From contig JBLFWS010000099.1 in assembly GCA_047611865.1 (NCBI GenBank), positions 1 through 12,604 on the forward strand: 12,604 bases of DNA, read 5' to 3'. The first letter of the stretch is position 1. Every line of letters begins with the position of its first letter. Source of the stretch: Chlamydiales bacterium. GTDB lineage: Bacteria > Chlamydiota > Chlamydiia > Chlamydiales > JBDQID01. The position numbers and the translations under genes were made by a program. The notes beneath the pieces are model-generated. The model searched no databases, was not told the origin of the DNA, and was given only the letters and a program-made list of their open reading frames with translations. Below are positions 2 to 12,604 of this stretch, piece by piece.

Positions 2-235
2 TTCAGTGAGATCCCCTTGGGGACCAATATCACAGAAGTAGAAGCTAAAATCGGCAGAGCCTATAAAACACGCCCCGTGCCTACAGGCACTGAGCACCTG
101 TATATCGAAAGAATCTCCTTGGGTAAAGACCACAATCTCCAGAAACACTACACCTTCACCTACTCCAATGGCTTAGTAATAAACAAGTCGGCCAAGGAAA
201 TAGAAGAACCTACCCTCAAAGCAAACTTTTATTGA
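2..235 (+). CDS. 3' part of a small hypothetical protein, possibly SmpA/OmlA (BamE)-like; truncated by the window edge
   Basis: Frame is open from position 2 (FSEIPLGTNITEVEAKIGRAY...) to TGA at 233-235, so the TTG at 17 is probably internal. 'IPLGTNITEVEAKIGRAY' resembles the 'I..G.s..eV...lG.P' start of SmpA/BamE-like folds, followed by predicted beta strands (HLYIER, HYTFTYSNGLVINK). Confidence 0.5.
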   Translation, partial: FSEIPLGTNITEVEAKIGRAYKTRPVPTGTEHLYIERISLGKDHNLQKHYTFTYSNGLVINKSAKEIEEPTLKANFY

Positions 236-240
236 GTATT

Positions 241-717
241 ATGGAAAACACCAAACAGATTTTCATGGAAAAGGCAATCGCAAGTGCCCGGGAGGGTATC
301 ACTTGCAATCACGGTGGCCCATTTGGAGCCTGCATTGTTAAGGATGGAGAAGTTATTTCCACCGGACACAATACTGTCATCCGTGACAACGACCCTACTT
401 GTCATGCAGAAATGAATGCCATTCGTGAAGCCTGCAAAAAACTCAACTCTCATATTCTCAAAGACTGTGAACTTTACACCACCGCAGAGCCCTGCCCCAT
501 GTGCCTGGCAGCGATATATTGGGCCCGCATCCCCAAAATCTTTGTTGGGGCTCACCGGGAAATAGCTGCCAATTTTGGATTCGATGATGACTTTTTCTAT
601 AAAGAGCTTGTTCTTCCTTTCAGTGAACGGCAGGTGGAAACGGTCGAAAATATTTTAAGCGATGAGTGTCAAAAAGTCTTTTCCGAGTGGAAAGAACTAC
701 AGCGTCCTCTATACTAA
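241..717 (+). CDS. guaD: Guanine deaminase / zinc-dependent nucleoside deaminase (cytidine deaminase superfamily)
   Basis: GGPFGACIV, DPTCHAEMNAIREAC (HAE motif), EPCPMCLAAIYWARI (PCxxC) and GFDD, typical of Bacillus-type GuaD. ATG at 241 is preferred over TTG at 232. Confidence 0.85.
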   Translation: MENTKQIFMEKAIASAREGITCNHGGPFGACIVKDGEVISTGHNTVIRDNDPTCHAEMNAIREACKKLNSHILKDCELYTTAEPCPMCLAAIYWARIPKIFVGAHREIAANFGFDDDFFYKELVLPFSERQVETVENILSDECQKVFSEWKELQRPLY

Positions 718-758
718 TTTCCTGACGTCATCATCTTCTAACATCAAGGTAAGCTATT

Positions 759-2210
759 ATGCCAGAAGCAGACATCGGACTTATCGGCCTCGCCGTCATG
801 GGTCAAAATCTCGTTCTTAACATGAGCGATCACAATTACACCGTTGCCGTTTTCAACCGCACAACTTCAAAAGTTGACGATTTCCTGGATGGAGCAGCAA
901 AAGGTCATAATGTCATAGGGACTCACTCCCTTGAAGAATTCTTTAAGACGCTCCGTCGCCCACGAAAAATCATTCTAATGGTAAAAGCCGGAGCTCCTGT
1001 CGACTCCTTTATCGAGATGTGCATGCCCTTTCTTGAAGCAGGCGATATTCTGATTGACGGAGGCAACAGCCACTTTCCCGACACGAATCAACGCTGCCTC
1101 GCTTTGAAAGAAAAGGGAATTCTTTTTGTCGGAGCCGGCATTTCCGGTGGTGAAGAAGGCGCCCGCCACGGTCCATCAATTATGCCAGGTGGAGATCTAA
1201 ACGCCTGGGAACATCTAAAAGCAATTTTTCAATCTATCTCTGCACGTTCTCAAGATAATCTTCCCTGCTGTGATTGGGTAGGGGATGAGGGGTCTGGCCA
1301 TTACGTTAAAATGGTTCATAATGGCATCGAATATGGTGACATGCAACTAATTTGCGAAGCTTATAACCTCATGGCTCAAGGCCTAAACCTTTCTGCCAAT
1401 GAGCTACATCTCACCTTCAAAGAATGGAACGACAAAGAACTCAATAGCTACCTTATAGAAATTACCAGTCATATTTTCAGTTGTAAAGATGGTGATGGCT
1501 CTCCACTTATTGATAAAATCCTTGACGTTGCTGGACAAAAAGGTACAGGTAAATGGGTAGCTGTTAATTCTCTAGAGATGGGCTTTCCTCTGAGCTTGAT
1601 CACTGAAGCCGTTTTTTCTCGATGCCTTTCTTCAAAAAAAGAAGAGCGGGTTGAGGCTAGTAAAAAACTCTTAGGACCAGGAACAAGCTTTACTGGAGAT
1701 AAAGAAGAATTTATTCAAAGCATTCGCGAAGCTCTATACGCCTCCAAAATAGTTAGCTATGCCCAAGGCTTTGCTCTTATCCAAGAAGCCTCCAGAGATT
1801 ACGGGTGGTCAATAGACCTCAAAAACCTGGCAGTCATTTGGCAGGGTGGATGTATCATCAGAAGTCGCTTTTTAAATAAAATCAAAGATGCCTACCAAAA
1901 AAACCCCTCATTAAAAAATCTTCTTCTGGACGATTTCTTCCTGGAAGAAATTCATAATGCTCAGAAGGGATGGAGAAAAGTAGTCTCTATGGCAGCAGAA
2001 CTTGGAATTCCCACCCCCTGCTTCAGTACCGCTCTAGCATATTATGACGGTTACCGGACTGCACGCCTACCAGCCAATTTACTCCAAGCGCAAAGAGATT
2101 TTTTCGGAGCGCACACCTATGAGCGCGTAGACAAGCCGCGAGGGGAATTTTTCCACACCAATTGGACAGGGACTGGGGGGAGCATCAGCTCCACACAATA
2201 TACTGTGTAA
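759..2210 (+). CDS. gnd: 6-phosphogluconate dehydrogenase, NADP-dependent, decarboxylating
   Basis: GLIGLAVMGQNL Rossmann motif, NRT, IDGGNS, SGGEEGARHGPSIMPGG, KMVHNGIEYGDMQ, GQKGTGKW, QAQRDFFGAHTY; 483 aa. Confidence 0.98.
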   Translation: MPEADIGLIGLAVMGQNLVLNMSDHNYTVAVFNRTTSKVDDFLDGAAKGHNVIGTHSLEEFFKTLRRPRKIILMVKAGAPVDSFIEMCMPFLEAGDILIDGGNSHFPDTNQRCLALKEKGILFVGAGISGGEEGARHGPSIMPGGDLNAWEHLKAIFQSISARSQDNLPCCDWVGDEGSGHYVKMVHNGIEYGDMQLICEAYNLMAQGLNLSANELHLTFKEWNDKELNSYLIEITSHIFSCKDGDGSPLIDKILDVAGQKGTGKWVAVNSLEMGFPLSLITEAVFSRCLSSKKEERVEASKKLLGPGTSFTGDKEEFIQSIREALYASKIVSYAQGFALIQEASRDYGWSIDLKNLAVIWQGGCIIRSRFLNKIKDAYQKNPSLKNLLLDDFFLEEIHNAQKGWRKVVSMAAELGIPTPCFSTALAYYDGYRTARLPANLLQAQRDFFGAHTYERVDKPRGEFFHTNWTGTGGSISSTQYTV

Positions 2211-2226
2211 AAGGGTTATTTTATCA

Positions 2227-2260
2227 TTCCCTGTGTGAGGACTCGTCAGCGCACAGGGAA
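2227..2260 (+). terminator. Stem-loop downstream of gnd (possible terminator or mRNA-stabilising hairpin)
   Basis: TTCCCTGTGTG (2227-2237) pairs with CGCACAGGGAA (2250-2260): 11 bp with one G-U, 16 nt after the gnd stop. No classical U-tract follows. Confidence 0.45.
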
Positions 2261-2306
2261 ATCATCTATCCTTAAATTAGTATCACTTATAATAATAAGC
2301 CCATAC

Positions 2307-2335
2307 TTGAATTTATTGATAAAATGTATTAAGTT
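2307..2335 (+). promoter_or_regulatory. Candidate sigma70/sigma66 promoter of lepA
   Basis: TTGAAT (2307-2312) - 17 bp - TAAGTT (2330-2335), about 40 nt before the lepA ATG. The region is very AT-rich, so chance matches are possible. Confidence 0.3.
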
Positions 2336-2374
2336 CTTATCAAAAATAATTAAGATTTCGGGATACTCTAAAAA

Positions 2375-4186
2375 ATGACCAAATACGACATAAAAAAAAT
2401 TCGCAACTTCTCCATTATCGCCCATATTGATCACGGGAAGTCCACTCTTGCAGACCGTATGCTTGAACTGACAAGAACTGTGGCATCACGTGACATGCAA
2501 GAACAACTTCTGGATGATATGGATTTAGAACGGGAACGCGGTATTACCATCAAAGCTCATCCCGTAACTATGTCGTACAAAGCAAGCTCTGGAGAAGAGT
2601 ATCAAATTAACTTTATCGACACTCCTGGCCATGTGGACTTCACATATGAAGTTTCCCGCTCTCTTGCAGCCTGTGAAGGAGCTCTTCTTGTTGTTGATGC
2701 CACTCAAGGGGTCCAGGCCCAAACCATGGCCAACGTCAACCTGGCTGTAGAACGCAACCTTGAGATTCTCCCTATACTTAATAAAATTGACCTCCCAGCC
2801 TCTGACGTAGAACGCGTAAAAGAACAAATCGAAGAAGTTATTGGCATCCCCGCTGCCGATGCTCTTACGTGTTCAGCGAAAACTGGATCCGGGGTCATTG
2901 AAATCCTCGATCGAATAGTTGAAGTCATTCCATGTCCGGCTGAACCAAAAGATGATATCCTTAGGGCTCTCATTTTTGACTCCCACTACGACAACTATCG
3001 CGGTGTCTTGGTTTACATCCGCGTTGTCAGTGGAGAGATCCGTAAAAAAGATGTAATCAAGATGATGGCCACGGATAAGCAGTTCGACATCAATGAAGTC
3101 GGGATATTTGCTCCGGATGAAACCGCTGTTGATGTACTCAGGCCTGGTGAAGTAGGCTACTTTGTTGCCAACATCAAAAAAACATCTGATGTAAAAATCG
3201 GAGATACGGTCACCTTACAAAAAAAGCCCGCGTCAGAACCTCTCCCTGGATTCCGCCTAATTAAGCCCGTTGTCTTTGCTGGAATATACCCCATCGATTC
3301 CTCTGATTTTGAAGCATTAAGGGATGCTGTTGTCAAATTACAACTTAATGATTCAGCACTGCATATCGAACAAGAAAGCAGTATGGCCCTCGGTTTTGGA
3401 TTCCGCTGTGGGTTTCTCGGTCTTCTTCATCTGGAAATTATTTTTGAAAGGATACAACGAGAATTTGATCTCGACATTATCACAACAGCACCAAGCGTAG
3501 TTTACAATGTTATCTTGCAAGACGGAACTAAAGTCAAAGTAGACAATCCCGTACACTTTCCTGATCCCAGCATCATACAATGCGTCGAAGAGCCTTGGGT
3601 AACTACCCATATCATAGCTCCATCAGAATATCTGGGTGCTATTATGAGCCTGGGAAAAGATAAGCGAGGGCTCTGCGTTAAAACAGATACTATAGACCAT
3701 TCTTCACGCCTGCTTTTGACATACCGTTTCCCCCTAAATGAAATTATCACCGACTTCAATGACAAGCTTAAATCCGTCACTAGAGGATACGGCTCCTTCG
3801 ACTACGAATTCGACGCCTACGAATTGAACGACATTATAAAACTCGAAATCCGAGTGAACGATGAACCAATCGACGCTTTTTCCTGCCTCCTCCATCGCAG
3901 CAAAGCTGAAAGCAAAGGAAGAGCTCTCTGTAAAAAACTCAAAGAGGTCATTCCAAGACAGCTTTTCAAAGTACCCATCCAAGCTGCTATTGGAGGGAAA
4001 ATCATTGCCAGAGAAACCATCGGTGCCCTTTCCAAAAACGTTACAGCAAAATGCTACGGTGGTGACATCTCTCGTAAGCGCAAGCTGTGGGATAAGCAGA
4101 AAAAGGGTAAAAAACGCATGAAAGAATTTGGTAAAGTCAGCATCCCACAACATGCGTTTATGGAAGTACTAAAAGCCAACGAATAA
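2375..4186 (+). CDS. lepA: Translation elongation factor 4 (LepA)
   Basis: [69 protein letters not shown]; 603 aa. Confidence 0.99.
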
Positions 4187-4188
4187 CT

Positions 4189-4923
4189 ATGTTAAAAATC
4201 ACTAAGCTTTCCTTCGGTTTCGAAAGTAATAGGGTCTTGAAGGACCTTTCTTTACACGTAAAAAAAGGCGAAATCGTTAGCATTCTTGGCCCTTCGGGAT
4301 GTGGCAAGACAACGCTATTTCGACTTATCTCCGCCCTTCTGCCACTCCAGAAGGGATGTATTAGCATATCGGGAAAATCATCCCCTGAAAGCAGTCAAGA
4401 TATCAGTTACATGATGCAAGAAGATCTTCTTATCCCTTGGCGGACCATCCTGGATAATGTCACCCTTTTACATGAGCTCGGAAAAGAAAAAAAAGACCTC
4501 GTGGCTATTAAAGCTAAAGCTCTCGATTTGTTAAAAGAGTTGGGCTTAGAAGGCTGTGAATCTCTCTATCCAAAAGAGCTCTCCGGAGGAATGCGCCAAA
4601 GAGTAGCACTGGCACGCAGCCTACTGCAAAATAGGCCTTTGCTCCTCCTCGATGAACCTTTTGGTGCTCTAGATTTTAGAACACGAGAAAATATGTATCA
4701 GCTGATAGTTAACTTACAGCAGCGCTATAAGAAAACTATTCTTCTTATCACCCATGACTTCAATGATGCCTTAGCTCTTTCCCACAAAATTCATGTCCTC
4801 TCAGATGGAAAGCTTAGCGAAGCATGGGATGCCCCTTCGGTAAAATCTTTCGAAAACAACTTCGACACCCACCTTTCTCTTCGAAAGATACTTCTCCAAA
4901 CATCTAGTTCACATGATTCCTAA
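4189..4923 (+). CDS. ABC transporter ATP-binding subunit, NitT/TauT/SsuB(ThiZ)-like
   Basis: Walker A GPSGCGKT, Q-loop YMMQEDLLIPWRT (TauB/SsuB-like), signature LSGGMRQR, Walker B LLLLDEPFGALD, H-loop ITHD. Starts 2 nt after the lepA stop. Confidence 0.92.
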   Translation: MLKITKLSFGFESNRVLKDLSLHVKKGEIVSILGPSGCGKTTLFRLISALLPLQKGCISISGKSSPESSQDISYMMQEDLLIPWRTILDNVTLLHELGKEKKDLVAIKAKALDLLKELGLEGCESLYPKELSGGMRQRVALARSLLQNRPLLLLDEPFGALDFRTRENMYQLIVNLQQRYKKTILLITHDFNDALALSHKIHVLSDGKLSEAWDAPSVKSFENNFDTHLSLRKILLQTSSSHDS

Positions 4924-4932
4924 GACTCAGTT

Positions 4933-4990
4933 AAAGCCAGAAAAATCTACGCTTTTCAACCCTCAACCTTAAACTTGACAGAGCACTAGA
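4933..4990 (-). repeat. Solo/degenerate arm of the palindromic element family
   Basis: CTTGACAGAGCACTAGA (4974-4990) is the exact 17-bp reverse complement of TCTAGTGCTCTGTCAAG (5038-5054). Weaker similarity extends leftwards (AAAGCCAGAAAAATCT vs AAACCAGAAGAAAAAATCT of the full element arm). Confidence 0.7.
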
Positions 4991-5038
4991 ATTTATATAA
5001 GCATAGACTTAAAATAATATTTACAAGCGAGTAACAAT

Positions 5039-5207
5039 CTAGTGCTCTGTCAAGGTTGAATTTGTGGGGATATTTACTGAGATTTTTTCTTCTGGTTTCG
5101 CATGGAGATCGAAGTCAAACATTGGGATGTTGCTGAGATCGAATGTAAGACCAGAGGATAAAAGATCAGTGAAGATACCTACAAATTCAATTTTGATGGC
5201 GCACTAG
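5039..5207. mobile_element. 169-bp palindromic non-autonomous element (MITE / Rickettsia-palindromic-element-like), CTAG at both ends
   Basis: Arms 5039-5103 and 5143-5207 are ungapped inverted repeats with 49/65 identity. The 39-nt centre has a small hairpin AACAT-TGGG-ATGTT flanked by a direct repeat GAGATCGAA. No transposase in the window. Confidence 0.8.
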
Positions 5208-5270
5208 TTCGTGTATCTAAATTAGAGAATGTCTGATTTTGAGGACATTTTATTTTAAAAGGCCTTTCTT

Positions 5271-6344
5271 ATGGATGAGTGTGATTTTTTTAAGCGTGCT
5301 ATTTTGACCCAATTCTATGAAAAAATGCATGTTATGGAAAAAAATAATTGGGATGCCTTTCGTTACCAGAATGATCCAGATGAGCAAAAAGGGCACTTTA
5401 ACCATAATCTACATACAGATTACCTTTTGTTTTTTCTAAAACATTGTCCAGAGATTTACGAAACCTATAAAAGTTTGGAAGATGGCCTATCAAAAATTTG
5501 GATGCAAGACCTTCTGCTGTTTAGACTTTTAGGACATCTCCATGTAAAGCTCTTAAATAATAACAGTCAATTTCTAGGAGCACACAAAAAAGCACAAGCC
5601 CACTTTGTCAAAAAATCCGAATTAAAATTTCGCAGCTATGTGGGTGGAGAACTTTCACTATGTGAAGTCGAATTCTGTGGAGAAAAAATCCAAGTAAATA
5701 CCTGGGTCGAAGCCATAGCTAACATTTTTTATCATAAACAATACTACTTCTCCAGAGAGCAAGAAGTTTGTGCTCCTGAAGTTGGAGATTATGTTATCGA
5801 TGCGGGAGCTTGTCTAGGAGATACAGCTCTTGCTTTTGCTGCAAGTGTTGGCCCTGAAGGGAAAGTTTTTAGCTTTGATATTGTCCCAACCCATCTTGCT
5901 ATTATGAAAAAAAACTTTACAGCTAATCCAAACCTGTCAGACCGTCTTCATATCATTCCAAAGGGCCTGTCTAATAAAACTGTGAAAGCCGATAAAATAG
6001 TGAGTGAACTGAAAGATATCGACCCTGGGGCCCGATTTACTACCGCTGGGATTATTCAAGATTTAACCTCTATTGATGATTTTGTATTCAATGGAGAAAA
6101 GACTTTACCTAGAGTGGATTTTATTAAAATGGATATTGAAGGAGCCGAATTAGAAGCGCTGCAAGGAGCAGAAAAAACATTGCGTATTTTCCGCCCCAAA
6201 TTAGCCATTTCTATTTACCATAAAAATTCAGATTTTACTGATATCCCACGGTTTCTTCGAAATTTATCCTTGGCATATCGTTTTTACATTGACCATCATA
6301 CTATTTACGCAGAAGAAACCATTTTGTATGCCAATGCGAGATAA
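5271..6344 (+). CDS. FkbM-family SAM-dependent methyltransferase with N-terminal extension
   Basis: VIDAGACLGDTAL (motif I), VFSFD, SIDDFV, VDFIKMDIEGAELEALQGA and FRPKLAISIYH, hallmark FkbM/Methyltransf_21 motifs. AAAAGG upstream of the ATG. Confidence 0.92.
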   Translation: MDECDFFKRAILTQFYEKMHVMEKNNWDAFRYQNDPDEQKGHFNHNLHTDYLLFFLKHCPEIYETYKSLEDGLSKIWMQDLLLFRLLGHLHVKLLNNNSQFLGAHKKAQAHFVKKSELKFRSYVGGELSLCEVEFCGEKIQVNTWVEAIANIFYHKQYYFSREQEVCAPEVGDYVIDAGACLGDTALAFAASVGPEGKVFSFDIVPTHLAIMKKNFTANPNLSDRLHIIPKGLSNKTVKADKIVSELKDIDPGARFTTAGIIQDLTSIDDFVFNGEKTLPRVDFIKMDIEGAELEALQGAEKTLRIFRPKLAISIYHKNSDFTDIPRFLRNLSLAYRFYIDHHTIYAEETILYANAR

Positions 6345-6358
6345 CTCCTAAAAGCAAA

Positions 6359-7033
6359 TTAACCAGAACTACCCACCCTCTGATATTGCTCTAACTTTTT
6401 AATAACCTTCTGAATACCCTTAAACATACCCGCCAAGTCATCTGGTTCCATGTATGCTGGTGTCGTAAAAACTTTATTTTTTTCATCAGCAACCATCTCC
6501 TCAACACCCGCTTCCTGAGCTATCATGCCCATTTTTGTTAAATTTTCATTCGCATCAGGGCTTCTACCGAGTGTCATTGTAACCGCTGTGACATCCTGGA
6601 AAATTTTCCCTAAAGCCGCTGGTGCTATGCATGTTGCACCAATCGGTTTAGCCGATTTATAAAAAGAAAGAACTGCTTTCTTACAATCTTCGTTAACAGA
6701 ACAATTCTCCTGCTCTTCGGCAAAAGAGCTGATGTTCAGTGCAACACCAAAGCCCCCAGGAATAAGTAACGCATCAAATTCATCCGAACGAAGTGCAGAA
6801 ACAGGAGATATATTCCCTCTAGCTATCCTAGCCGCCTCAGTAAGAACATTCCTTCTCTCATTGCCTTCATCCTTCCCCGTACGATGATTTACTACCTTTA
6901 CTTGCTCAATATCGGGCGCAAAGCAATGAAATTCATGCCCATTCTGGGCAAGAGCCAAAAGACATAAAACTGACTCATGTATTTCGGCCCCATCGAGATA
7001 ACCACATCCAGATAAAACTACAGCCACTTTCAC
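6359..7033 (-). CDS. elbB: ElbB/ES1-type glyoxalase (DJ-1/PfpI superfamily)
   Basis: KVAVVLSGCGYLDGAEIHESV, RRNVLTEAARIARG, PGGFG, GATCIAP (nucleophile-elbow Cys), TTPAYM. GTG start with Shine-Dalgarno GGGAGGT 4 nt upstream. Confidence 0.93.
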   Translation of the reverse strand: MKVAVVLSGCGYLDGAEIHESVLCLLALAQNGHEFHCFAPDIEQVKVVNHRTGKDEGNERRNVLTEAARIARGNISPVSALRSDEFDALLIPGGFGVALNISSFAEEQENCSVNEDCKKAVLSFYKSAKPIGATCIAPAALGKIFQDVTAVTMTLGRSPDANENLTKMGMIAQEAGVEEMVADEKNKVFTTPAYMEPDDLAGMFKGIQKVIKKLEQYQRVGSSG

Positions 7034-7122
7034 ATTGACCTCCCAAAAGTTGAAGTTCTAAAATTTATTATCTGTATAGCATATTCTCTCTCAGACAAGT
7101 ACAAAAAGCTGCAAGAAAATCA

Positions 7123-7151
7123 TTCACAATCAAATAGATTTCATGTATTCT
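7123..7151 (+). promoter_or_regulatory. Sigma70/sigma66-type promoter driving the structured RNA / uppS-cdsA-cmk
   Basis: TTCACA (7123-7128) - exactly 17 bp - TATTCT (7146-7151). Predicted start near 7157-7158, just before the closing stem at 7162. Confidence 0.55.
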
Positions 7152-7157
7152 TTTAGC

Positions 7158-7268
7158 GTTCGAGCAGGCAAAGATAGTTTCCCAACGACTTTCATTCAGC
7201 ACTTTGTGTCTTTTTATCTGGCACAGATGTTCTACCCCTTCGAGATCCTCAGCTTGCCCTGCTTAGTT
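7158..7268 (+). ncRNA. Candidate ~105-110 nt structured RNA (rod with central bubble; 6S-like sRNA or uppS leader)
   Basis: Closing stem GAGCAGG-CAA (7162-7171) with TTG-c-CCTGCTT (7254-7264); weak mid stem GAT..TTC (7173-7181) with GAGATC (7242-7247); unpaired bubble 7182-7197 / 7232-7241; apical stem AGCA-c-TTTGTGTC (7198-7210) with GGCACAGA-TGTT (7220-7231). Folded by eye; family not recognised. Confidence 0.45.
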
Positions 7269-7292
7269 TAAAAATATAAAGGAAATACTATC

Positions 7293-8072
7293 GTGACCTC
7301 CCTATTTTCTGTAGATACTATAGAAGACAGTTCCAAGCTTTTTTCAGCAGAGCAATTACTTTCTCTGGATCCCACAAATATCCCAAACCATGTGGCTATT
7401 ATCATGGATGGAAATCGTCGTTGGGCAAAAAAACGCTTCTTTTCTACAGTCTTAGGACACTCAAAAGGTGTCGATGCTCTTATGGATTCTGTCAAAGCAG
7501 CCAAAGACTTAGGGGTAAAGGTCCTCACTGTTTATGGTTTCTCTACTGAAAATTGGAAACGCTCCAAGCTCGAAGTTAAGATTCTTCTGGATATCTTTGA
7601 GCAAGCATTGTTAAAACACACTGAGCCAATGACTCAAAATGGAGTTCGCCTCCACAGTATAGGTGATGTATCTCCTTTCCCCCCTAGATTTATCAAAATG
7701 CTTGAAGAAAGTAAAAAACGCACTTCACACTGTGAAGGCATTGACCTTGTCCTCGCTCTGAATTATGGAGGACGAGACGAACTCCGAAGAGCCCTGACTT
7801 CCATAGCTGACGACTTAGAAACGGGGAAACTCAATAAAAATCAAATTGACGAACAGCTGATTAGCAGTTACCTTGATACTGCTCAATGGAAAGACCCCGA
7901 CTTATTGATTCGGACCAGCGGAGAAAACAGAGTTAGTAACTTCCTTTTATGGCAACTATCGTACACTGAACTCTACGTTACCAATCGCTTATGGCCGGAC
8001 TTTTCCCCTCAAGATCTTTTAGAAGCTATAGTAGAATATCAAAACCGCGAACGTAGATTAGGAGAAGGATAA
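7293..8072 (+). CDS. uppS: Undecaprenyl diphosphate synthase (cis-isoprenyltransferase)
   Basis: HVAIIMDGNRRWA, FSTENWKR, ALNYGGRDE, DPDLLIRTSGENRVSNFLLWQLSYTE. GTG start with AAAGGA upstream. Confidence 0.97.
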   Translation: MTSLFSVDTIEDSSKLFSAEQLLSLDPTNIPNHVAIIMDGNRRWAKKRFFSTVLGHSKGVDALMDSVKAAKDLGVKVLTVYGFSTENWKRSKLEVKILLDIFEQALLKHTEPMTQNGVRLHSIGDVSPFPPRFIKMLEESKKRTSHCEGIDLVLALNYGGRDELRRALTSIADDLETGKLNKNQIDEQLISSYLDTAQWKDPDLLIRTSGENRVSNFLLWQLSYTELYVTNRLWPDFSPQDLLEAIVEYQNRERRLGEG

Positions 8073-8075
8073 ATT

Positions 8076-8939
8076 ATGGATACGGGCAAACTCAAACAAC
8101 GTGCCATAGTCTCCTCACTGTCTCTCACCCTCTTAATTATCACTCTCTGCCTCTCCTACCATGCGATCTTCAAATATCTCGTTATCGCAATATTCGCTTC
8201 ATGCATCGCTCTTGCACTATGGGAATTTTACCAGCTCGCCCTTCATAAAGGTTTTAACCCTAGTATAAAACTAGGTGTTGCCTCTGCTGTTTTCTATTCT
8301 TTCGCAACATTTGCTGAAACCCAGAACACTATTTTTCACAATTATTCCCAATTTGCCTTTGCTCTTGCTCTTTTTGCCATTTTTATTCGCCATTTCATCA
8401 AAAGAGAAGATGCCATCGCCAACCTTTCCATAAGTTCGTTTGGCTTTCTTTATGTTGCAGTGTCCTTAAGCTTTCTCATTCAGATTCTTCACTACTTCCC
8501 TGAGCCTAATGTCACCAACGGTCGCTGGTGGTTTATTTACTTACTAGCCGTCACAAAAGTGACTGATACGGGAGCCTACTTCACAGGTTCTTACTTAGGA
8601 AAAAGAAAGCTAGCTCCTCATCTAAGCCCCGGTAAAACCATTGAAGGTGCTGTAGGTGGCCTGGTTTCCGGTATCATTGCCAGTCTCATCCTTTTCTACC
8701 TAAGCAGAATGAACCAAGCCCTACCTTTACACTTCACCCTGATCCAAGCCATAGGCCTAGGTGCCGTACTATCTATTTCTGGCCAAGCTGGCGACCTGGG
8801 AGAATCACTATTAAAACGTGATGCATCTGTCAAAGACAGCAACACCTTGCCTGGTCTTGGTGGCATGCTCGACACGGTCGACTCCCTATTGTTTACAGGA
8901 CCCATACTCTATCTTTTCCTTGAGGCTACTACACCATGA
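8076..8939 (+). CDS. cdsA: Phosphatidate cytidylyltransferase (CDP-diacylglycerol synthase)
   Basis: Polytopic hydrophobic protein with DTGAYFTG, LSPGKTIEGAVGG, GDLGESLLKRDASVKDS and GGMLDTVDS; canonical position after uppS. Confidence 0.96.
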   Translation: MDTGKLKQRAIVSSLSLTLLIITLCLSYHAIFKYLVIAIFASCIALALWEFYQLALHKGFNPSIKLGVASAVFYSFATFAETQNTIFHNYSQFAFALALFAIFIRHFIKREDAIANLSISSFGFLYVAVSLSFLIQILHYFPEPNVTNGRWWFIYLLAVTKVTDTGAYFTGSYLGKRKLAPHLSPGKTIEGAVGGLVSGIIASLILFYLSRMNQALPLHFTLIQAIGLGAVLSISGQAGDLGESLLKRDASVKDSNTLPGLGGMLDTVDSLLFTGPILYLFLEATTP

Positions 8940-9610
8940 TCATTACCATTGACGGTCCTGCAGGATCAGGAAAAAGCTCTGTAGCAAAAAATCTAGCTGA
9001 GAAAATCGGTTATATTTTCTTTGATTCAGGAGCCATGTACCGTGCTGTGACCTACGGACTCATAAAAGAAGATATCGACCCTCATAACAGCGAACTTCTC
9101 TCACAATTTCTCCAAAATTTCAACTATTCTATTTCCTCTGAAGCGGGAGAAAAAATATACCATGTTAATGGAGAGGATGTGACGCAACATATTCGCTCTC
9201 GGATTGTTACAAATCGCGTTTCTGAAATCGCAGCCATTGCCGAAGTCCGCAACTCTCTTGTCCATATTCAACGCAATTGTGCAAAAGATGTTAACGCCGT
9301 TTTTGAAGGAAGGGATATGGGCACTGTCGTCTTCCCCAAGGCGCAACTAAAAGTTTTCCTCATTGCCAGCCCTCGAGTCAGAGCAGAAAGACGTTTTAAT
9401 GAAATCATGGCAAAAAATTCAGAAGAAGCAAAAGCCTTATCACTCAAGCAGGTAGAGGATGACATCATCCGACGCGACCACCTTGACTCCACCCGAGAGC
9501 ATTCTCCCCTCCGGGAACCTGAAAATGCCAAGGTTATTGACACTTCTAATCTTAGTATTGCCGAAGTTATCAAAAAGATCATCGATTACAAAGATGAGAT
9601 CAATAAGTAA
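8936..9610 (+). CDS. cmk: Cytidylate kinase
   Basis: IITIDGPAGSGKSS P-loop, DSGAMYRA, EGRDMGTVVFP, RAERR, RRDHLDSTREHSPL, IDTS. ATGA overlap with the cdsA stop. Confidence 0.97.
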   Translation: MIITIDGPAGSGKSSVAKNLAEKIGYIFFDSGAMYRAVTYGLIKEDIDPHNSELLSQFLQNFNYSISSEAGEKIYHVNGEDVTQHIRSRIVTNRVSEIAAIAEVRNSLVHIQRNCAKDVNAVFEGRDMGTVVFPKAQLKVFLIASPRVRAERRFNEIMAKNSEEAKALSLKQVEDDIIRRDHLDSTREHSPLREPENAKVIDTSNLSIAEVIKKIIDYKDEINK

Positions 9611-9725
9611 GCTTTTCTCCTGTCCTCGCCTGATTAGGAGTTGGCTCAGGAACTATCAAGAAATAACTTGGATACCTTGGGATGCTGAAACCCTCCAAAA
9701 AGACCAAATTATCTCTTAATGCTTC

Positions 9726-10400
9726 CTACCCTACTGGCTTCTTGTTCAGGCAACAAAGTAGATCACCTTTCTCAACTGTGACAGAAAACTTGTTTGAAGT
9801 GCATTGATTGGATATACCTAAAAAATTTTTATGCATGGAAGCCTTTTCCAGCTCCCACTTTAACCCAACTGTACTAATCCCCTCCACCTTACCATTAAAA
9901 GGAATAAGGGACACCGTCTGACCTTTCTGACAGCTTAGCTCCGTAGTCCTATTTACCACAAAAGCCAGCTCACCTTCTGTCTCCAAGAAAACTTTTCCTG
10001 GATAACGCGTCAATAGGATCACATTTCCAAGCAAATGATCCAGCCTTCCACCCAAAGCCCCGTATACATAAGCTCTTTGAACATCACCTTGAAAAACTAA
10101 TTCCAGCGCCAGCTCTAAATCTGTCTCATCTTTTTCCACAGGAAAAAAAACTGTCCGCACATGAGAGTAAACTTTTAAAAGATCCTGGGGAATAGAATCG
10201 AGATCTCCCACAATTAGCTCAGGAGTAATCCCTAAGACATGGCAGTGGACTAAACCTCCGTCCACCGCGACAACTCCTTTATGAGAGAGCAAGAAATTCG
10301 CTGTTACCTCTCTATCACCTATCTCACCACTTGCAACTAAGGCCTTTGTCGTACCAGTGAAAAATTCACGCGCTGCCTCAAACTGGCCCACTATCACCAT
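9726..10400 (-). CDS. thiN: Thiamine pyrophosphokinase
   Basis: VAVDGG, PELIVGDLDSI, EKDETDLELAL, GALGGRLDHLLGN, VSLIP, GLKWEL, GISN. The ATG lies 23 bp inside the upstream gene, so the exact start is uncertain. Confidence 0.93.
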   Translation of the reverse strand: MVIVGQFEAAREFFTGTTKALVASGEIGDREVTANFLLSHKGVVAVDGGLVHCHVLGITPELIVGDLDSIPQDLLKVYSHVRTVFFPVEKDETDLELALELVFQGDVQRAYVYGALGGRLDHLLGNVILLTRYPGKVFLETEGELAFVVNRTTELSCQKGQTVSLIPFNGKVEGISTVGLKWELEKASMHKNFLGISNQCTSNKFSVTVEKGDLLCCLNKKPVG

Positions 10401-12537
10401 CCGCCCAGTTTACGGCAGCAGCAATATCTGTTGGATCTTGCGCCCCCTTCACTCCAAACATAGCCCTCGCAGCCTTGACAGCCCCGTCTGCGCCTCCCTT
10501 TGAACCCCAAACGACACCTGAATAATCTGGTCCCATCCTTGCCAAAGCGCCGATGGTGGCGAATATATAGCCCGAAGCTTTCATGCTGTCCACCATGCTA
10601 AAGAAAGTAGAAAAGTCAGCAAGAAAAACTGTTTGACCTTGATAAAACCCTAGCCCTTTGTATTTCTTTTTATCTACAATCAGCCCTTCCCCAACAAGAC
10701 GCTTTTCTGTCTCAGTGAACATTGAGCTAGGTGCTTCAAAATTAAAGCCTATATCTTTAACAACGGTCACTATCTGATGTCTTGGGAACTTATCACGAAC
10801 TAATTTCGTATGTTTTCCCTGCTGATCATCAAAAACGAGAAATAATGTTTCCTGACGTACATCTTCTGTGGTATGCGTCAAAAATTCGATCACATCTTTT
10901 TCTTTCCATATTCGATCAATCGGAATTTCCATATCTAACTTAATCACAGACTTCAGACACTGGTCATTCAGATAACGCTTAATGGCTTCATAATTTCCAA
11001 GAAAAGTACCGCTACAACCAACGTCTGTTAATCCCACAATACGATGAGAAAGGGGTAAGCTCAGATAGGCTTCTTTATATGCAGCATCCCCTTCACTCGC
11101 AACAACCACCAAATGTAAAGCCTTTTTCAGTTGAGGAGATCCTGGAGTGAACAGGTCTGTGCTCCAAATGTCGTGAGGATTAATGCTTGCGAGTTTACTG
11201 CCTGTCCAGTATCCAAAAAATTTATTACAGACCATATCTGAAAGAGCATTCGGAATTTTATTAACAATAAAATCCGTTCTCAAATTAACTTTTCTCAACA
11301 AAACGTCGTACTCTTCCTGCGACCTAAAATCTTCAAGATAGCTATCTGCAATGCCGACAGGAACAATATAAGGATTTATATCCAATTTAAGATCTCTTTG
11401 CCTTTGCTCCCTTTCTCCCCCTCTATCAAACAACTTCCTTCTTTCATCAGCCCTACGTTTTTGCCTTTCTACTTTTGCTGCCGCCTGTTCTTCTTCAGTT
11501 AATGAGCCTCCTGCTACTTCAGGTTCTTTAGGTTTTTGAGGAATAGGCTCTTCTTTTGGATCCCTTTTTCTGGCCACTTCAGGCTCTTTATCAACTTCGA
11601 TCTTCTCTGTTTTTTCCAATTCCTTTTCCTCAGGACTCCCCGCCTTAGGAACCTCCACATGCCTTTGCACATGAACTTCGTCAAGATTCCCAGCAATCTG
11701 CTCTAAGCCTTCACGGACTTTCTCATCTATCAACTGATTCATTTTTCGAATCCTGTCTGCCATAATAATGGCAAGCTTCGCAAAAACCTTTTGCCGCAAT
11801 ACATAGCTTGTATCACTGAAGATATGTTTACCCACTTCAAGAACTATACAATCATTAGCCGCTACACACCATGCTGAACGTGTACAATTGTCAAGTATGG
11901 CCATTTCTCCGAAAGGACTCCCTGCTCCAACAGGAATATCAATAATTGTATGATCTTGTCTAAAAATAATGACCATTACCTTCCCTTGCAAAAGCACAAA
12001 GAAATTGTCTGCAGGGTCTCCTTTCGTAATGATCTCCTCTCCAGCCTCAAACCTACGAGGAGCCGAAACGGCATACATAGCCTCACATTCTTCCTCTGAA
12101 AATTCGCTAAAGAATTCCGACTCTCTAATTAAGGCCTTAAGATTTGGTAATTTAACACTCCTTAAACAACTTTCCAAAGCCTTCTTAGCATCCTCAATTT
12201 CTGCAAGAGGATCCATAAGGACAGAAGCACCTGCAATGATTAAACTCCGAACAAATTCAGAATCCTCGGACTTTGTTTTAAGGATAAAAGGGATCTCTCG
12301 ATCAGGACAGTGCAATTTTAAAAAAGTAATGATCTTAGGAGCTGTCGTACCAGCAAAATAGTCAGAAATAACAACTATATGAAATTCTTCATCAGCAAGT
12401 CTCTGCCCAGCTTTCTTAAAATCACTCTCTGACTGAACATCATTTAATCCTACTTCCTTAAATACGCTCTCTATCCTGACCCTTGAATCAGTATCAGGCT
12501 CAACAATTAAGACATTCAGCTCCCCAAAATCTTTCAC
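10378..12537 (-). CDS. Multidomain signalling protein: degenerate receiver (REC) domain + cyclic-nucleotide-binding domain + charged linker + ~320-aa unrecognised C-terminal domain
   Basis: REC-like: NVLIVEPD, FHIVVISDY, IPFILKT, AGAS. cNMP: FFSEFSEEE, GEEIITKGDPADNFFVLLQGKV, FGEMAIL, TRSAW. E/K/P/R-rich linker follows. GTG start with GGAGA upstream. Confidence 0.85.
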   Translation of the reverse strand: MKDFGELNVLIVEPDTDSRVRIESVFKEVGLNDVQSESDFKKAGQRLADEEFHIVVISDYFAGTTAPKIITFLKLHCPDREIPFILKTKSEDSEFVRSLIIAGASVLMDPLAEIEDAKKALESCLRSVKLPNLKALIRESEFFSEFSEEECEAMYAVSAPRRFEAGEEIITKGDPADNFFVLLQGKVMVIIFRQDHTIIDIPVGAGSPFGEMAILDNCTRSAWCVAANDCIVLEVGKHIFSDTSYVLRQKVFAKLAIIMADRIRKMNQLIDEKVREGLEQIAGNLDEVHVQRHVEVPKAGSPEEKELEKTEKIEVDKEPEVARKRDPKEEPIPQKPKEPEVAGGSLTEEEQAAAKVERQKRRADERRKLFDRGGEREQRQRDLKLDINPYIVPVGIADSYLEDFRSQEEYDVLLRKVNLRTDFIVNKIPNALSDMVCNKFFGYWTGSKLASINPHDIWSTDLFTPGSPQLKKALHLVVVASEGDAAYKEAYLSLPLSHRIVGLTDVGCSGTFLGNYEAIKRYLNDQCLKSVIKLDMEIPIDRIWKEKDVIEFLTHTTEDVRQETLFLVFDDQQGKHTKLVRDKFPRHQIVTVVKDIGFNFEAPSSMFTETEKRLVGEGLIVDKKKYKGLGFYQGQTVFLADFSTFFSMVDSMKASGYIFATIGALARMGPDYSGVVWGSKGGADGAVKAARAMFGVKGAQDPTDIAAAVNWADGDSGPV

Positions 12538-12604
12538 AGTGACTTCTCCAGATTTTTTGGGTTGACCCTTTTTCCAGGTAGAGGGGATAGATAAAAAAAC
12601 TTTT

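Follow-up and report, generated by a model that had tools for sequence, protein, structure and literature searches.

What does a bacterial sensor module control when the output domain attached to it matches no characterised family? This question is raised by a gene encoding a protein of 719 amino acids in the stretch of 12,604 nucleotides from a Chlamydiales bacterium that we analysed (hereafter, the window). To our knowledge, regulators recognised in the Chlamydiae are very few, and little of their second-messenger signalling has been charted. The second messengers tied to chlamydial development in the partial texts covered by our literature search came down to c-di-AMP, which an excerpt of one paper presents as a driver of that development (PMC12422730). 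An excerpt of another describes how, in Chlamydia species, cAMP changes both the growth of inclusions and the balance between developmental forms, through no known mode of action (PMC4527707), and the main text of PMC8242063 mentions neither cyclic nucleotides nor response regulators.

The open reading frame at 10378..12537, proposed in the initial annotation, is real: it is a single intact gene on the minus strand, the strand on which all features described below are located, with a GTG start and a stop codon at 10378-10380. On the plus strand the same span contains stops throughout. Direct reading of the sequence places a Shine-Dalgarno-like GGAGA (12545..12549) 7 nt upstream of the GTG, which aligns with the first residue (Met) of P0003, an 87%-identical relative; the start is therefore backed both by this box and by the same aligned start in the relative. 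All of the motif strings quoted in that annotation are present in the translation. The protein consists of four parts, namely a receiver, a cyclic-nucleotide-binding (CNB) domain, a charged linker and a C-terminal output domain, and no transmembrane-like stretch was found in it. Its domain composition, the intact phosphate-binding cassette, the degenerate receiver, the disordered tether and the confident compact fold of the output domain are established by computation.

The N-terminal part (aa 1-125; 12163..12537), delimited by profile searches against the PDB and by the model, had been called REC-like. The receiver fold is confirmed: a profile of nine family N-termini (A4) matched 271 PDB chains at E<=0.1, with the receiver of Sln1 at E 4.3e-16 and CheY at approximately 1e-12, and in the full-length prediction aa 8-125 are arranged as (beta-alpha)5, at a pLDDT of about 90. 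The domain is nevertheless degenerate and lacks the conserved Lys. The active site of CheY comprises D57, D12/D13, T87 and K109. In the 719-aa protein, E13-P14 are found at the acidic pair, D59 is at the phospho-acceptor position and T88 is retained, while D109 occupies the position of the conserved Lys; the full set of acceptor Asp, acidic pair, Thr/Ser and Lys is thus incomplete. Across the family, the acceptor Asp and the Thr are each present in 19 of 30 sequences and the Lys (CheY-K109 column) in one. Pfam Response_reg (PF00072) did not match the 719-aa protein at E<=0.1, NCBIfam gave weak matches only (PleD, aa 6-115, E 0.002), and among 17 proteins scanned the Response_reg cut-off of 30.2 bits was passed only by P0036 (31.4) and P0062 (30.7).

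The receiver is followed by the CNB domain (aa 133-245), which continues into a long C-terminal helix (aa 246-283; together 11689..12141), as delimited by Pfam, PDB and Foldseek matches and by the model. For aa 161-241, Pfam cNMP_binding (PF00027, CAP_ED) gives E 6.1e-16 and a score of 58.6 bits, compared with a gathering cut-off of 27.5. Searching PDB sequences with this part identified 118 chains at E<=0.01, among them PKG, PKA-R, CRP/Vfr, Pat and Bd1971, and Foldseek aligned its model with solved CNB domains at E 3.1e-10 and probability 1.00, with target-normalised TM scores of 0.48-0.74 to PKA RI-alpha, GlxR, CRP and PKG II; solved domains with cAMP or cGMP bound are matched at E of about 1e-10. 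The phosphate-binding cassette of CNB domains is defined by Gly-Glu and Arg-[Ser/Thr/Ala]-Ala, and the cassette proposed initially is indeed intact, since F-G-E ... R-S-A is read in the translation at aa 209-222 (11872..11913). From this we infer that the domain binds cAMP or cGMP. Within the family the Glu is present in 24 of 30 sequences and the Arg in 25, the cassette having decayed in several relatives (5-6 of 30 lack Glu or Arg).

A CNB domain of this kind invites three readings borrowed from better known proteins. Some sources name relatives 'Crp/Fnr family transcriptional regulator' or 'CRP-like cAMP-binding protein', and the NCBIfam CRP model matches with E 2.5e-9, as would be expected if the protein were a transcription factor of the CRP/FNR type. 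However, at 36.9 bits this match is below the cut-off of 266, and it spans only the nucleotide-binding half of the model (positions 13-136 of 214); none of the helix-turn-helix families is matched at E<=0.1, and the C-terminal 329 aa match neither DNA-binding families nor DNA-binding structures. We regard a CRP/FNR-type factor as very improbable, and the database name is, judged from the sequence, a mis-annotation by partial match. A Pycsar-like anti-phage effector, in which a cNMP-binding domain is fused to a killing domain of the TIR or membrane type and encoded beside a pyrimidine cyclase, is suggested by matches to the PADLOC PycTIR and TIR-effector models (E 9e-13 to 7e-6), but all PADLOC matches are confined to aa 149-274, within the CNB part, the C-terminal domain alone matches nothing, no adjacent cyclase is present in the window or in the scanned neighbours, and several chlamydial genomes have the gene within a conserved order of housekeeping genes, making this role exceedingly improbable. 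The third reading, an effector secreted into the eukaryotic host cell to sense the cAMP or cGMP of the host, would suit an organism of the obligate intracellular type, and eukaryotic PKG and PKA regulatory subunits rank among the best sequence matches of the CNB domain; moreover, exogenous cAMP alters Chlamydia development, according to an excerpt of PMC4527707. Yet bacterial CNB domains score similarly per domain, the ranks of PKG and PKA-R being inflated because several domains match per chain, and a regulator that acts in the bacterial cytoplasm typically has such a receiver domain and such housekeeping synteny. Secretion is a role that we consider highly unlikely.

Between sensor and output lies a charged low-complexity linker of 107 residues (aa 284-390; 11368..11688), defined by pLDDT and composition. 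It had been described beforehand as charged and partly coiled-coil. The charge is evident, with 47% K/R/D/E over residues 272-394, whereas a coiled coil is not supported as a conserved feature. In the full-length model, aa 284-346 have pLDDT <50 and are without secondary structure, aa 348-386 form a low-confidence helix with block means of pLDDT between 44 and 70, and pLDDT again falls below 50 at aa 372-382; in the 30 sequences of alignment A1 the linker varies from 39 to 187 aa (median 80). The linker is accordingly predicted to be mostly disordered, without conservation and variable in length across the family.

The remaining 329 residues (aa 391-719; 10381..11367) form the orphan output domain. 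As anticipated from the sequence alone, this region is a globular alpha/beta domain: AlphaFold2 models it as a compact fold with pLDDT 91.8 and pTM 0.87, compared with a pTM of 0.49 for the full-length model. Despite this confident model, four HMM libraries, including Pfam, NCBIfam and PADLOC, contain no matching family, PDB sequences gave no match either with the single protein or with a profile, and Foldseek found nothing at E<=0.001 in PDB or BFVD, the best matches being at E 0.010 (PDB) and 0.023 (BFVD) with TM of 0.36 or less. Queried with the domain and with the standalone relative P0052, the ESM Atlas gave neither a usable match nor a model. Helix-turn-helix, GGDEF, EAL, HD, cyclase, kinase and patatin families are absent from aa 391-719 at E<=0.1 in Pfam and NCBIfam, in agreement with the earlier reading by eye. 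The suggestion in the initial annotation that the domain is possibly undescribed is upheld, since no confident match to a characterised family emerged, and a literature search of titles and abstract openings found no paper on it. The best Foldseek match is Sar1b (E 0.010, target-normalised TM 0.35); a P-loop GTPase of the Sar1/Arf/Rab type was rejected, with the Walker A pattern GxxxxGK[ST] in 0 of 50 members and Era at an hhalign probability of 0.4%. SIS-domain and CheB-esterase identities were rejected likewise, GmhA and CheB being at noise by hhalign, as was an internal duplication (0.2% probability when the halves were aligned).

Across 44 relatives the region shares 40-87% identity, and 18 columns are invariant in 55 complete domains, which goes beyond chance; seven of these columns are polar or charged (K416, H475, D535, R542, H555, D559 and T577). 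Together with glycine-rich loops, these seven residues are located where strands end and helices begin in a Rossmann-like alpha/beta core. One such loop, W-G-S-K-G-G-A-D-G-A at aa 677-686 (10480..10509), leads into a helix; W677, G678, G681 and G682 are invariant, and the model is less confident there (pLDDT 68-81). Another stretch, at aa 565-577 (10807..10845), comprises a strand, an acidic residue, a Gly-x-x-Thr loop and a helix start, a pattern present in 47 of 50 family members, with D570, G574 and T577 conserved and T577 found in 55 of 55 domains. Conservation of this kind is enzyme-like, and the domain may be catalytic. Against an enzyme-like reading, no catalytic family, cofactor motif or ligand was matched, and no conserved neighbour hints at a pathway.

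The stretch at aa 565-577 is the only one with even a weak resemblance to an established motif, namely the PRPP loop of E. coli Gpt, raising the question of whether the domain is a very divergent type I phosphoribosyltransferase (PRTase) fold that binds PRPP or a nucleotide and links cNMP to nucleotide salvage or sensing. In hhalign comparisons with six E. coli PRTases, run alongside 95 and then 27 comparison proteins, aa 562-595 align with the PRPP-loop region of Gpt at a probability of 24.8-28%, which places Gpt at the top of the 95 comparison proteins (median 0.2%, 95th percentile 0.73%), and Hpt aligns with the same region. PRTases also recur among the best, insignificant Foldseek matches (PDB ranks 3, 19, 21, 22 and 49; BFVD ranks 1, 41 and 47), although with E of 0.013 or worse and target-normalised TM of 0.29 or less. 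Moreover, Gpt is the only one of the six type I enzymes above noise, the five others reaching 0.8% or less (Hpt 0.4-0.5%), and with Apt, Upp, PyrE and Prs the motif stays unaligned. The PRPP motif of type I PRTases is a hydrophobic strand and an acidic pair followed by [TS]-G-x-T, and this acidic-pair-[TS]-G-x-T pattern occurs in 0 of 50 family members; nor does Pfam Pribosyltran match any of 11 members even at E<=10. A PRTase identity is thus distinctly unlikely.

The distribution of the family bears on the autonomy of the output domain. When 1.84 billion representative proteins were scanned exhaustively with the C-terminal domain, only 43 matched, and a genome scan with one narrow peptide pattern, which is an undercount, gave at least eight loci (L001-L008). 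Amongst the 55 complete domains, 37 are preceded by >=299 aa of N-terminal extension and 10 by a shorter extension, one is located behind a PAS domain and seven have <70 aa in front. Locus L006 carries two tandem standalone copies, and on the tree the standalone label needs five changes, at least three of which are forced by well-supported branches. Since it occurs behind REC-CNB, behind PAS or alone, the C-terminal domain is an autonomous output module. When the N-terminal 280 aa were used as the query for other outputs, only six family members and P0073 were recovered. The chlamydial origin presumed at the outset is borne out: all named sources of relatives are Simkania negevensis, Waddliaceae or 'Chlamydiales bacterium', six of the eight loci are labelled Chlamydiales, Waddlia or Waddliaceae, and the window has the gene order lepA, elbB, uppS, cdsA, cmk in common with L001, L006 and L008. 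One variant lies on a contig of 57.5% GC labelled Thermodesulfobacteriota, so restriction to the Chlamydiae is either not strict or not certain.

The genomic context is vertical and housekeeping. Immediately downstream, at 9726..10400, is a thiamine diphosphokinase gene (TIGR01378, 163 bits) whose ATG lies inside the 719-aa gene, the two sharing the final 23 nt of the latter, and no terminator-like site was found in 9500-12604. The overlap makes co-transcription likely here; it is specific to the window, as no thiamine diphosphokinase homologue is found in L001-L008, and does not mark a conserved partner. No partner gene is conserved, the neighbours (two to three per locus in L002-L008) being housekeeping genes that differ between loci. 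A nucleotide cyclase was found neither in the window (Pfam) nor among the two to three neighbours per locus in L002-L008, and Rfam and tRNA scans of the window returned nothing.

These observations also bear on whether the C-terminal domain is an enzyme at all or a non-catalytic adaptor or scaffold that binds proteins and that becomes exposed, or dimerises, once cNMP is bound by the sensor module. An adaptor would account for the failure to match any catalytic motif or family, its recruitment role would fit a long flexible tether, the tandem standalone paralogues of L006 could form a heteromer, and a narrow, lineage-restricted family (43 matches) is common for lineage-specific interaction modules. 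On the other hand, seven invariant polar or charged residues and several glycines, kept in 55 of 55 domains, go beyond what a binding surface usually retains at 40% identity, and no conserved partner gene lies nearby. We consider an adaptor credible but unlikely. Such an adaptor might, for instance, be a partner-switching module whose target is a protein specific to chlamydiae. The flexible tether is equally compatible with a scaffold.

The reading we prefer, to which we give an even chance, is that of a one-component sensor in which cNMP gates a tethered effector, the output likely being an enzyme or a small-molecule-binding module. The protein would act in the cytoplasm of a chlamydia-like bacterium as a one-component signalling protein, with a sensor module made up of the degenerate receiver, probably independent of phosphorylation, and a putative cAMP/cGMP-binding domain with its long C-helix; this module would control the family-specific 330-residue output domain through the long disordered tether. 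Because the tether is long, disordered and non-conserved, control through a rigid signalling helix is unlikely. As for the direction and mode of regulation of the C-terminal domain, it is more probable that the sensor docks on and masks the output domain, or shifts its oligomeric state. In the PKA regulatory subunit, cNMP releases an inhibited catalytic partner; cyclic-nucleotide binding may release the output domain in a similar manner, but within one chain. The ligand of an output domain that is most likely an enzyme or small-molecule-binding module would be phosphorylated or nucleotide-like. Control by cNMP is not universal in the family, given the decayed cassettes in 5-6 of 30 sequences and the seven forms without a sensor.

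In the environmental chlamydiae (Simkania, Waddlia and their relatives), the family represents a concrete, conserved putative cNMP receptor, and with a compact, confidently modelled, uncharacterised and soluble domain of 330 residues, cNMP control in chlamydiae becomes a testable question. The naming in databases is corrected in that the members are not Crp/Fnr transcription factors. More speculatively, and with considerable doubt on our part, the C-terminal domain might found a new enzyme superfamily with a fold absent from solved structures and (almost) confined to the Chlamydiae, acting as the output of a cAMP/cGMP pathway that turns a bacterial or host cyclic nucleotide into a metabolic or developmental switch.

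Among known systems, mycobacterial Pat (CNB-GNAT) and Bdellovibrio Bd1971 (CNB-EAL), both of which turn up when the CNB part is compared by sequence and by fold, similarly fuse a single CNB domain with an intact cassette to an output that the domain is expected to gate. They differ in that their outputs are known enzymes (GNAT, EAL) reached through short structured linkers, whereas the 719-aa protein has an orphan output on a 107-aa disordered tether and a receiver that precedes the CNB domain. The CNB domains of PKA-R and PKG are among the best matches of the CNB part (sequence E 3e-21 to 1e-10; Foldseek target-normalised TM 0.69-0.74), but the 719-aa protein contains no kinase, inhibitor sequence or tandem CNB pair, and its partner is in the same chain. 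With CRP/FNR proteins it shares a CNB domain followed by a long C-helix, and the cassette of E. coli CRP likewise ends in R-S-A-W, although the helix-turn-helix is missing. An N-terminal (beta-alpha)5 receiver is held in common with PleD-type response regulators and pseudo-receivers (PleD and CheY are among the profile matches), from which the family is set apart by loss of the conserved Lys (kept in 1 of 30), replacement of the second acidic residue, an acceptor Asp in only 19 of 30, and a CNB domain interposed between receiver and output. The likeness to E. coli Gpt is restricted to a local element of strand, acidic residue, glycine loop, helix and strand, as the defining PRPP motif is found in 0 of 50 family members and the fold match is not significant. 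The type of protein is already known, and it is the output domain that is new.

The gene studied lies intact on the minus strand at 10378..12537, where it forms an open reading frame of 719 aa, and the plus strand across the same interval contains many stops. It begins with a GTG codon preceded, 7 nt upstream, by GGAGA, and this start aligns with the first residues of P0003, the closest relative, which is 87% identical to the window protein across the C-terminal region. A thiamine diphosphokinase gene, also on the minus strand (9726-10400; TIGR01378, 163 bits), starts with an ATG inside the gene studied and overlaps its last 23 nt; no homologue of this enzyme was found in the fetched flanks of eight related loci (L001-L008), and no terminator-like site was detected in 9500-12604. 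The housekeeping remainder of the window (232-9610) encodes a TadA-like deaminase, a 6-phosphogluconate dehydrogenase-like ORF, LepA, an ABC ATPase, ElbB, UppS, CdsA and Cmk, and the window contained no tRNA or Rfam matches. An FkbM-family methyltransferase gene on the plus strand (5271-6344) lies where the GC content of the window is lowest (0.36-0.38 versus 0.40-0.45 elsewhere), and since its counterpart is absent from the related loci, it may be a recent acquisition. Gene order is common to the window and related loci: lepA, elbB, uppS, cdsA and cmk stand beside the gene at L001, with uppS-cdsA-cmk in the same order as in the window, while lepA, elbB and uppS accompany the family gene at L008 and cmk does so at L006. 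The other neighbours at these loci are unrelated housekeeping genes, and no cyclase or conserved partner was found among the 19 neighbour proteins scanned. The idea that the window protein is a Pycsar-like effector is contradicted by this genomic context.

The motif strings quoted in the initial annotation were all found in the translation of this gene. In its sensor half, Pfam detects a cyclic-nucleotide-binding (CNB) domain that spans aa 161-241, with E 6.1e-16 and a score of 58.6 bits where the cut-off is 27.5, and aa 1-390 match 118 chains among PDB sequences at E<=0.01, including PKG, PKA regulatory subunits, CRP/Vfr, the acetyltransferase Pat and the EAL enzyme Bd1971. A full-length AlphaFold2 model (mean pLDDT 81.7) was matched by Foldseek to solved cAMP- and cGMP-bound domains with E about 3e-10, a probability of 1.00 and target-normalised TM-scores <=0.74. 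The phosphate-binding cassette, described earlier as intact-looking, is indeed intact: aa 209-222 carry the Gly-Glu and Arg-Ser-Ala elements with which characterised CNB domains contact ribose and phosphate, and of 30 aligned relatives 24 have the Glu and 25 the Arg. In the model the CNB barrel is followed by a long C-helix (aa 246-283), which in CRP-type proteins provides the dimer interface; dimerisation of the window protein is plausible. The names given to relatives, 'Crp/Fnr family transcriptional regulator' and 'CRP-like cAMP-binding protein', derive from the CNB half alone, and a CRP-type regulator is contradicted by the missing helix-turn-helix (HTH).

The REC-like domain proposed at the N-terminus is a receiver by profile and by model. 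The window protein itself has no match to Response_reg (Pfam) at E<=0.1 and its NCBIfam receiver matches are weak (PleD, E 0.002), but a profile of nine family N-termini matched 271 receiver chains in the PDB at E<=0.1 (Sln1, E 4.3e-16; CheY, about 1e-12), and aa 8-125 are modelled as a clean (beta-alpha)5 pattern. The active site is degenerate: compared with the CheY active site, E13-P14 occupy the acidic-pair positions, D59 occupies that of the acceptor and T88 is kept, but D109 replaces the conserved Lys. In the corresponding columns of 30 relatives, Asp and Thr each occur in 19 and Lys in one. We read this as a degenerate receiver, the phosphorylation of which is doubtful.

The C-terminal region (C-domain, aa 391-719), noted initially as unrecognised, has no family match in the libraries searched. 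Pfam and NCBIfam gave nothing at E<=0.1 except one spurious sub-threshold match, PADLOC gave no match, the ESM Atlas gave no usable one, and phmmer against PDB sequences found none (best E 0.32). An 11-member family profile retrieved nothing from PDB sequences even at E<=10, and the 11 members searched singly against Pfam at E<=10 yielded five unrelated families, each in one member. AlphaFold2, using a 50-sequence alignment, predicts a compact alpha/beta domain with confidence (mean pLDDT 91.8, pTM 0.87), the glycine-rich last 50 residues being the sole less certain part (pLDDT 63-81). Foldseek with this model returned nothing at E<=0.001 from either the PDB, where the best matches were a glucokinase-regulator SIS protein and Sar1b (E 0.010, TM <=0.36), or BFVD, where the best was a phage Hpt (E 0.023). 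Since the same pipeline, given the full-length model, recognised its CNB domain (E 3e-10), the method works on this protein, and we regard it as established for the predicted structure that no solved or viral-predicted structure resembles the C-domain, although comparison with these two libraries does not establish a new fold.

Across 55 complete C-domains, 18 columns are invariant, including K416, H475, D535, R542, H555, D559, T577 and four glycines of the W-G-S-x-G-G loop. In the model these sites map to the first core strand and the next loop, the loop behind a beta-hairpin, the strand-to-helix turn at aa 570-577 and the region before the helix at aa 678-694; strand-end and loop positions of this sort are typical ligand sites in Rossmann-like domains. 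No transmembrane-like stretch was found in the protein and no internal duplication in the C-domain. A minor rival to an orphan domain is a divergent type I phosphoribosyltransferase (PRTase)-like nucleotide binder, as aa 565-577 recall the PRPP loop of these enzymes. Using hhalign, the family profile aligned this region with E. coli Gpt at a probability of 24.8-28%, the top value among 95 comparison proteins (median 0.2%, 95th percentile 0.73%), Hpt aligned the same region at 0.4-0.5%, and PRTases recur among the top, insignificant Foldseek matches in both PDB and BFVD. However, the motif was not aligned with Apt, Upp, PyrE or Prs, the canonical PRPP pattern occurs in none of 50 members, the Pribosyltran HMM matched none of the members scanned and the Foldseek TM-scores of PRTases are <=0.29. 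The likeness would therefore be no classification. A P-loop GTPase was rejected (Walker A absent in all 50 members; Era at hhalign noise), as were relations to SIS-domain proteins and CheB, with GmhA and CheB at the same noise level.

The family HMM matched 69 of 73 collected proteins, 55 of them with a complete C-domain. In architecture groups set by length only, 37 of these domains follow an N-terminal extension of at least 299 aa, 10 a shorter one, and seven are preceded by fewer than 70 residues, though some short forms may be truncated gene models; the remaining one (P0042, at L007) lies behind a PAS domain in place of CNB. In P0019 (977 aa) a second, decayed REC-CNB unit stands in front. 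Two standalone copies occur in tandem at L006 (3-1022 and 1041-2174, 18 nt apart), which hints that the C-domain works as a pair. The first of these copies (P0052 type) has a long branch in its own clade and lacks the N-P-H and W-G-S motifs, yet keeps all seven invariant polar residues. In the distant relatives P0056 (534 aa) and P0062 (497 aa), good REC and CNB domains (REC up to 30.7 bits) are combined with a shortened C-domain from which the beta-hairpin region, the glycine-rich tail or both are missing; their outputs may be decayed or differently built. P0073 (1030 aa), found with the sensor half, joins a TLC-type nucleotide transporter, HEAT repeats and a cNMP-binding domain, and is a further example of a link between CNB domains and nucleotide handling. 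On a maximum-likelihood tree of the 55 domains, whose bootstrap is not fully settled, the standalone label needs five changes, at least three of them forced by well-supported branches. The C-domain thus folds and works apart from its sensors, which relatives have exchanged or lost on several occasions, a pattern that marks it as an output module.

A phmmer search with the C-domain of 1.84 billion representative proteins gave 43 matches at E<=0.001, the four weakest being three unrelated repeat proteins and P0062. Word-indexed searches of 5.8 billion clusters retrieved 44 proteins by single sequence (395-1259 aa; PF00027 precomputed in 40) and 29 by profile (174-669 aa), all of the same family. 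The chlamydial lineage proposed initially is borne out by every source name given in both cluster searches (Simkania negevensis, Waddliaceae or 'Chlamydiales bacterium'), by the common gene order and by six of the eight locus titles. These loci, which came from scanning a single genome per species for one peptide pattern, comprise four Chlamydiales MAGs, one Waddlia chondrophila MAG, one Waddliaceae MAG, one 'uncultured bacterium' and one 'uncultured Thermodesulfobacteriota' (L007, contig CAZFIB010000081.1). L007 has a GC content of 57.5%, versus 36-51% at the other seven loci and 42% in the window; either the family extends beyond Chlamydiae, or the contig is mis-binned or comes from a relative of high GC. 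P0042, the only PAS-fused variant, is encoded there (L007:7329-8960). Because no such name appears among the source names, which are given for a minority of matches, absence of the family from Chlamydiaceae is suggested.

The linker was described initially as charged and partly coiled-coil. Its charge is clear (47% K/R/D/E in aa 272-394), but a conserved coiled coil is not: aa 284-346 and 372-382 have pLDDT <50, aa 348-386 are modelled as one long low-confidence helix, and in 30 relatives the linker is 39-187 aa long, with a median of 80, and its sequence is not conserved. It is thus predicted to be a flexible tether. The pTM of the full-length model is 0.49 compared with 0.87 for the C-domain alone, and therefore the model does not define how the domains are placed relative to one another. 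The best-supported reading is that the window protein would be a one-component signalling protein, in which an enzyme-like orphan output domain would be controlled by the degenerate receiver together with a ligand-competent CNB domain; a rival reading makes the C-domain a non-catalytic adaptor. Given the length, disorder and variability of the tether, we infer that this signalling protein would not be regulated through a rigid helical relay; its regulation would instead involve reversible docking or masking, or a shift in oligomeric state.

In Chlamydia pecorum and C. trachomatis, according to PMC4527707, which cites Kaul and Wenman 1986, cAMP changes growth and the proportions of developmental forms, with no mode of action known; neither species is among the source names given for C-domain family members. 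A secreted sensor of host cAMP is a further rival to the one-component reading. By term search, the main text of a chlamydial pangenome study (PMC8242063) contains neither cyclic nucleotides nor response regulators, and no published account of the C-domain family was found among titles and abstract openings. The C-domain is new as a described family: none of the libraries searched contains a model for it, nor does it have a solved structure. The kind of protein to which it belongs, a CNB sensor with an output, is already well known from examples such as Pat, Bd1971 and CRP.
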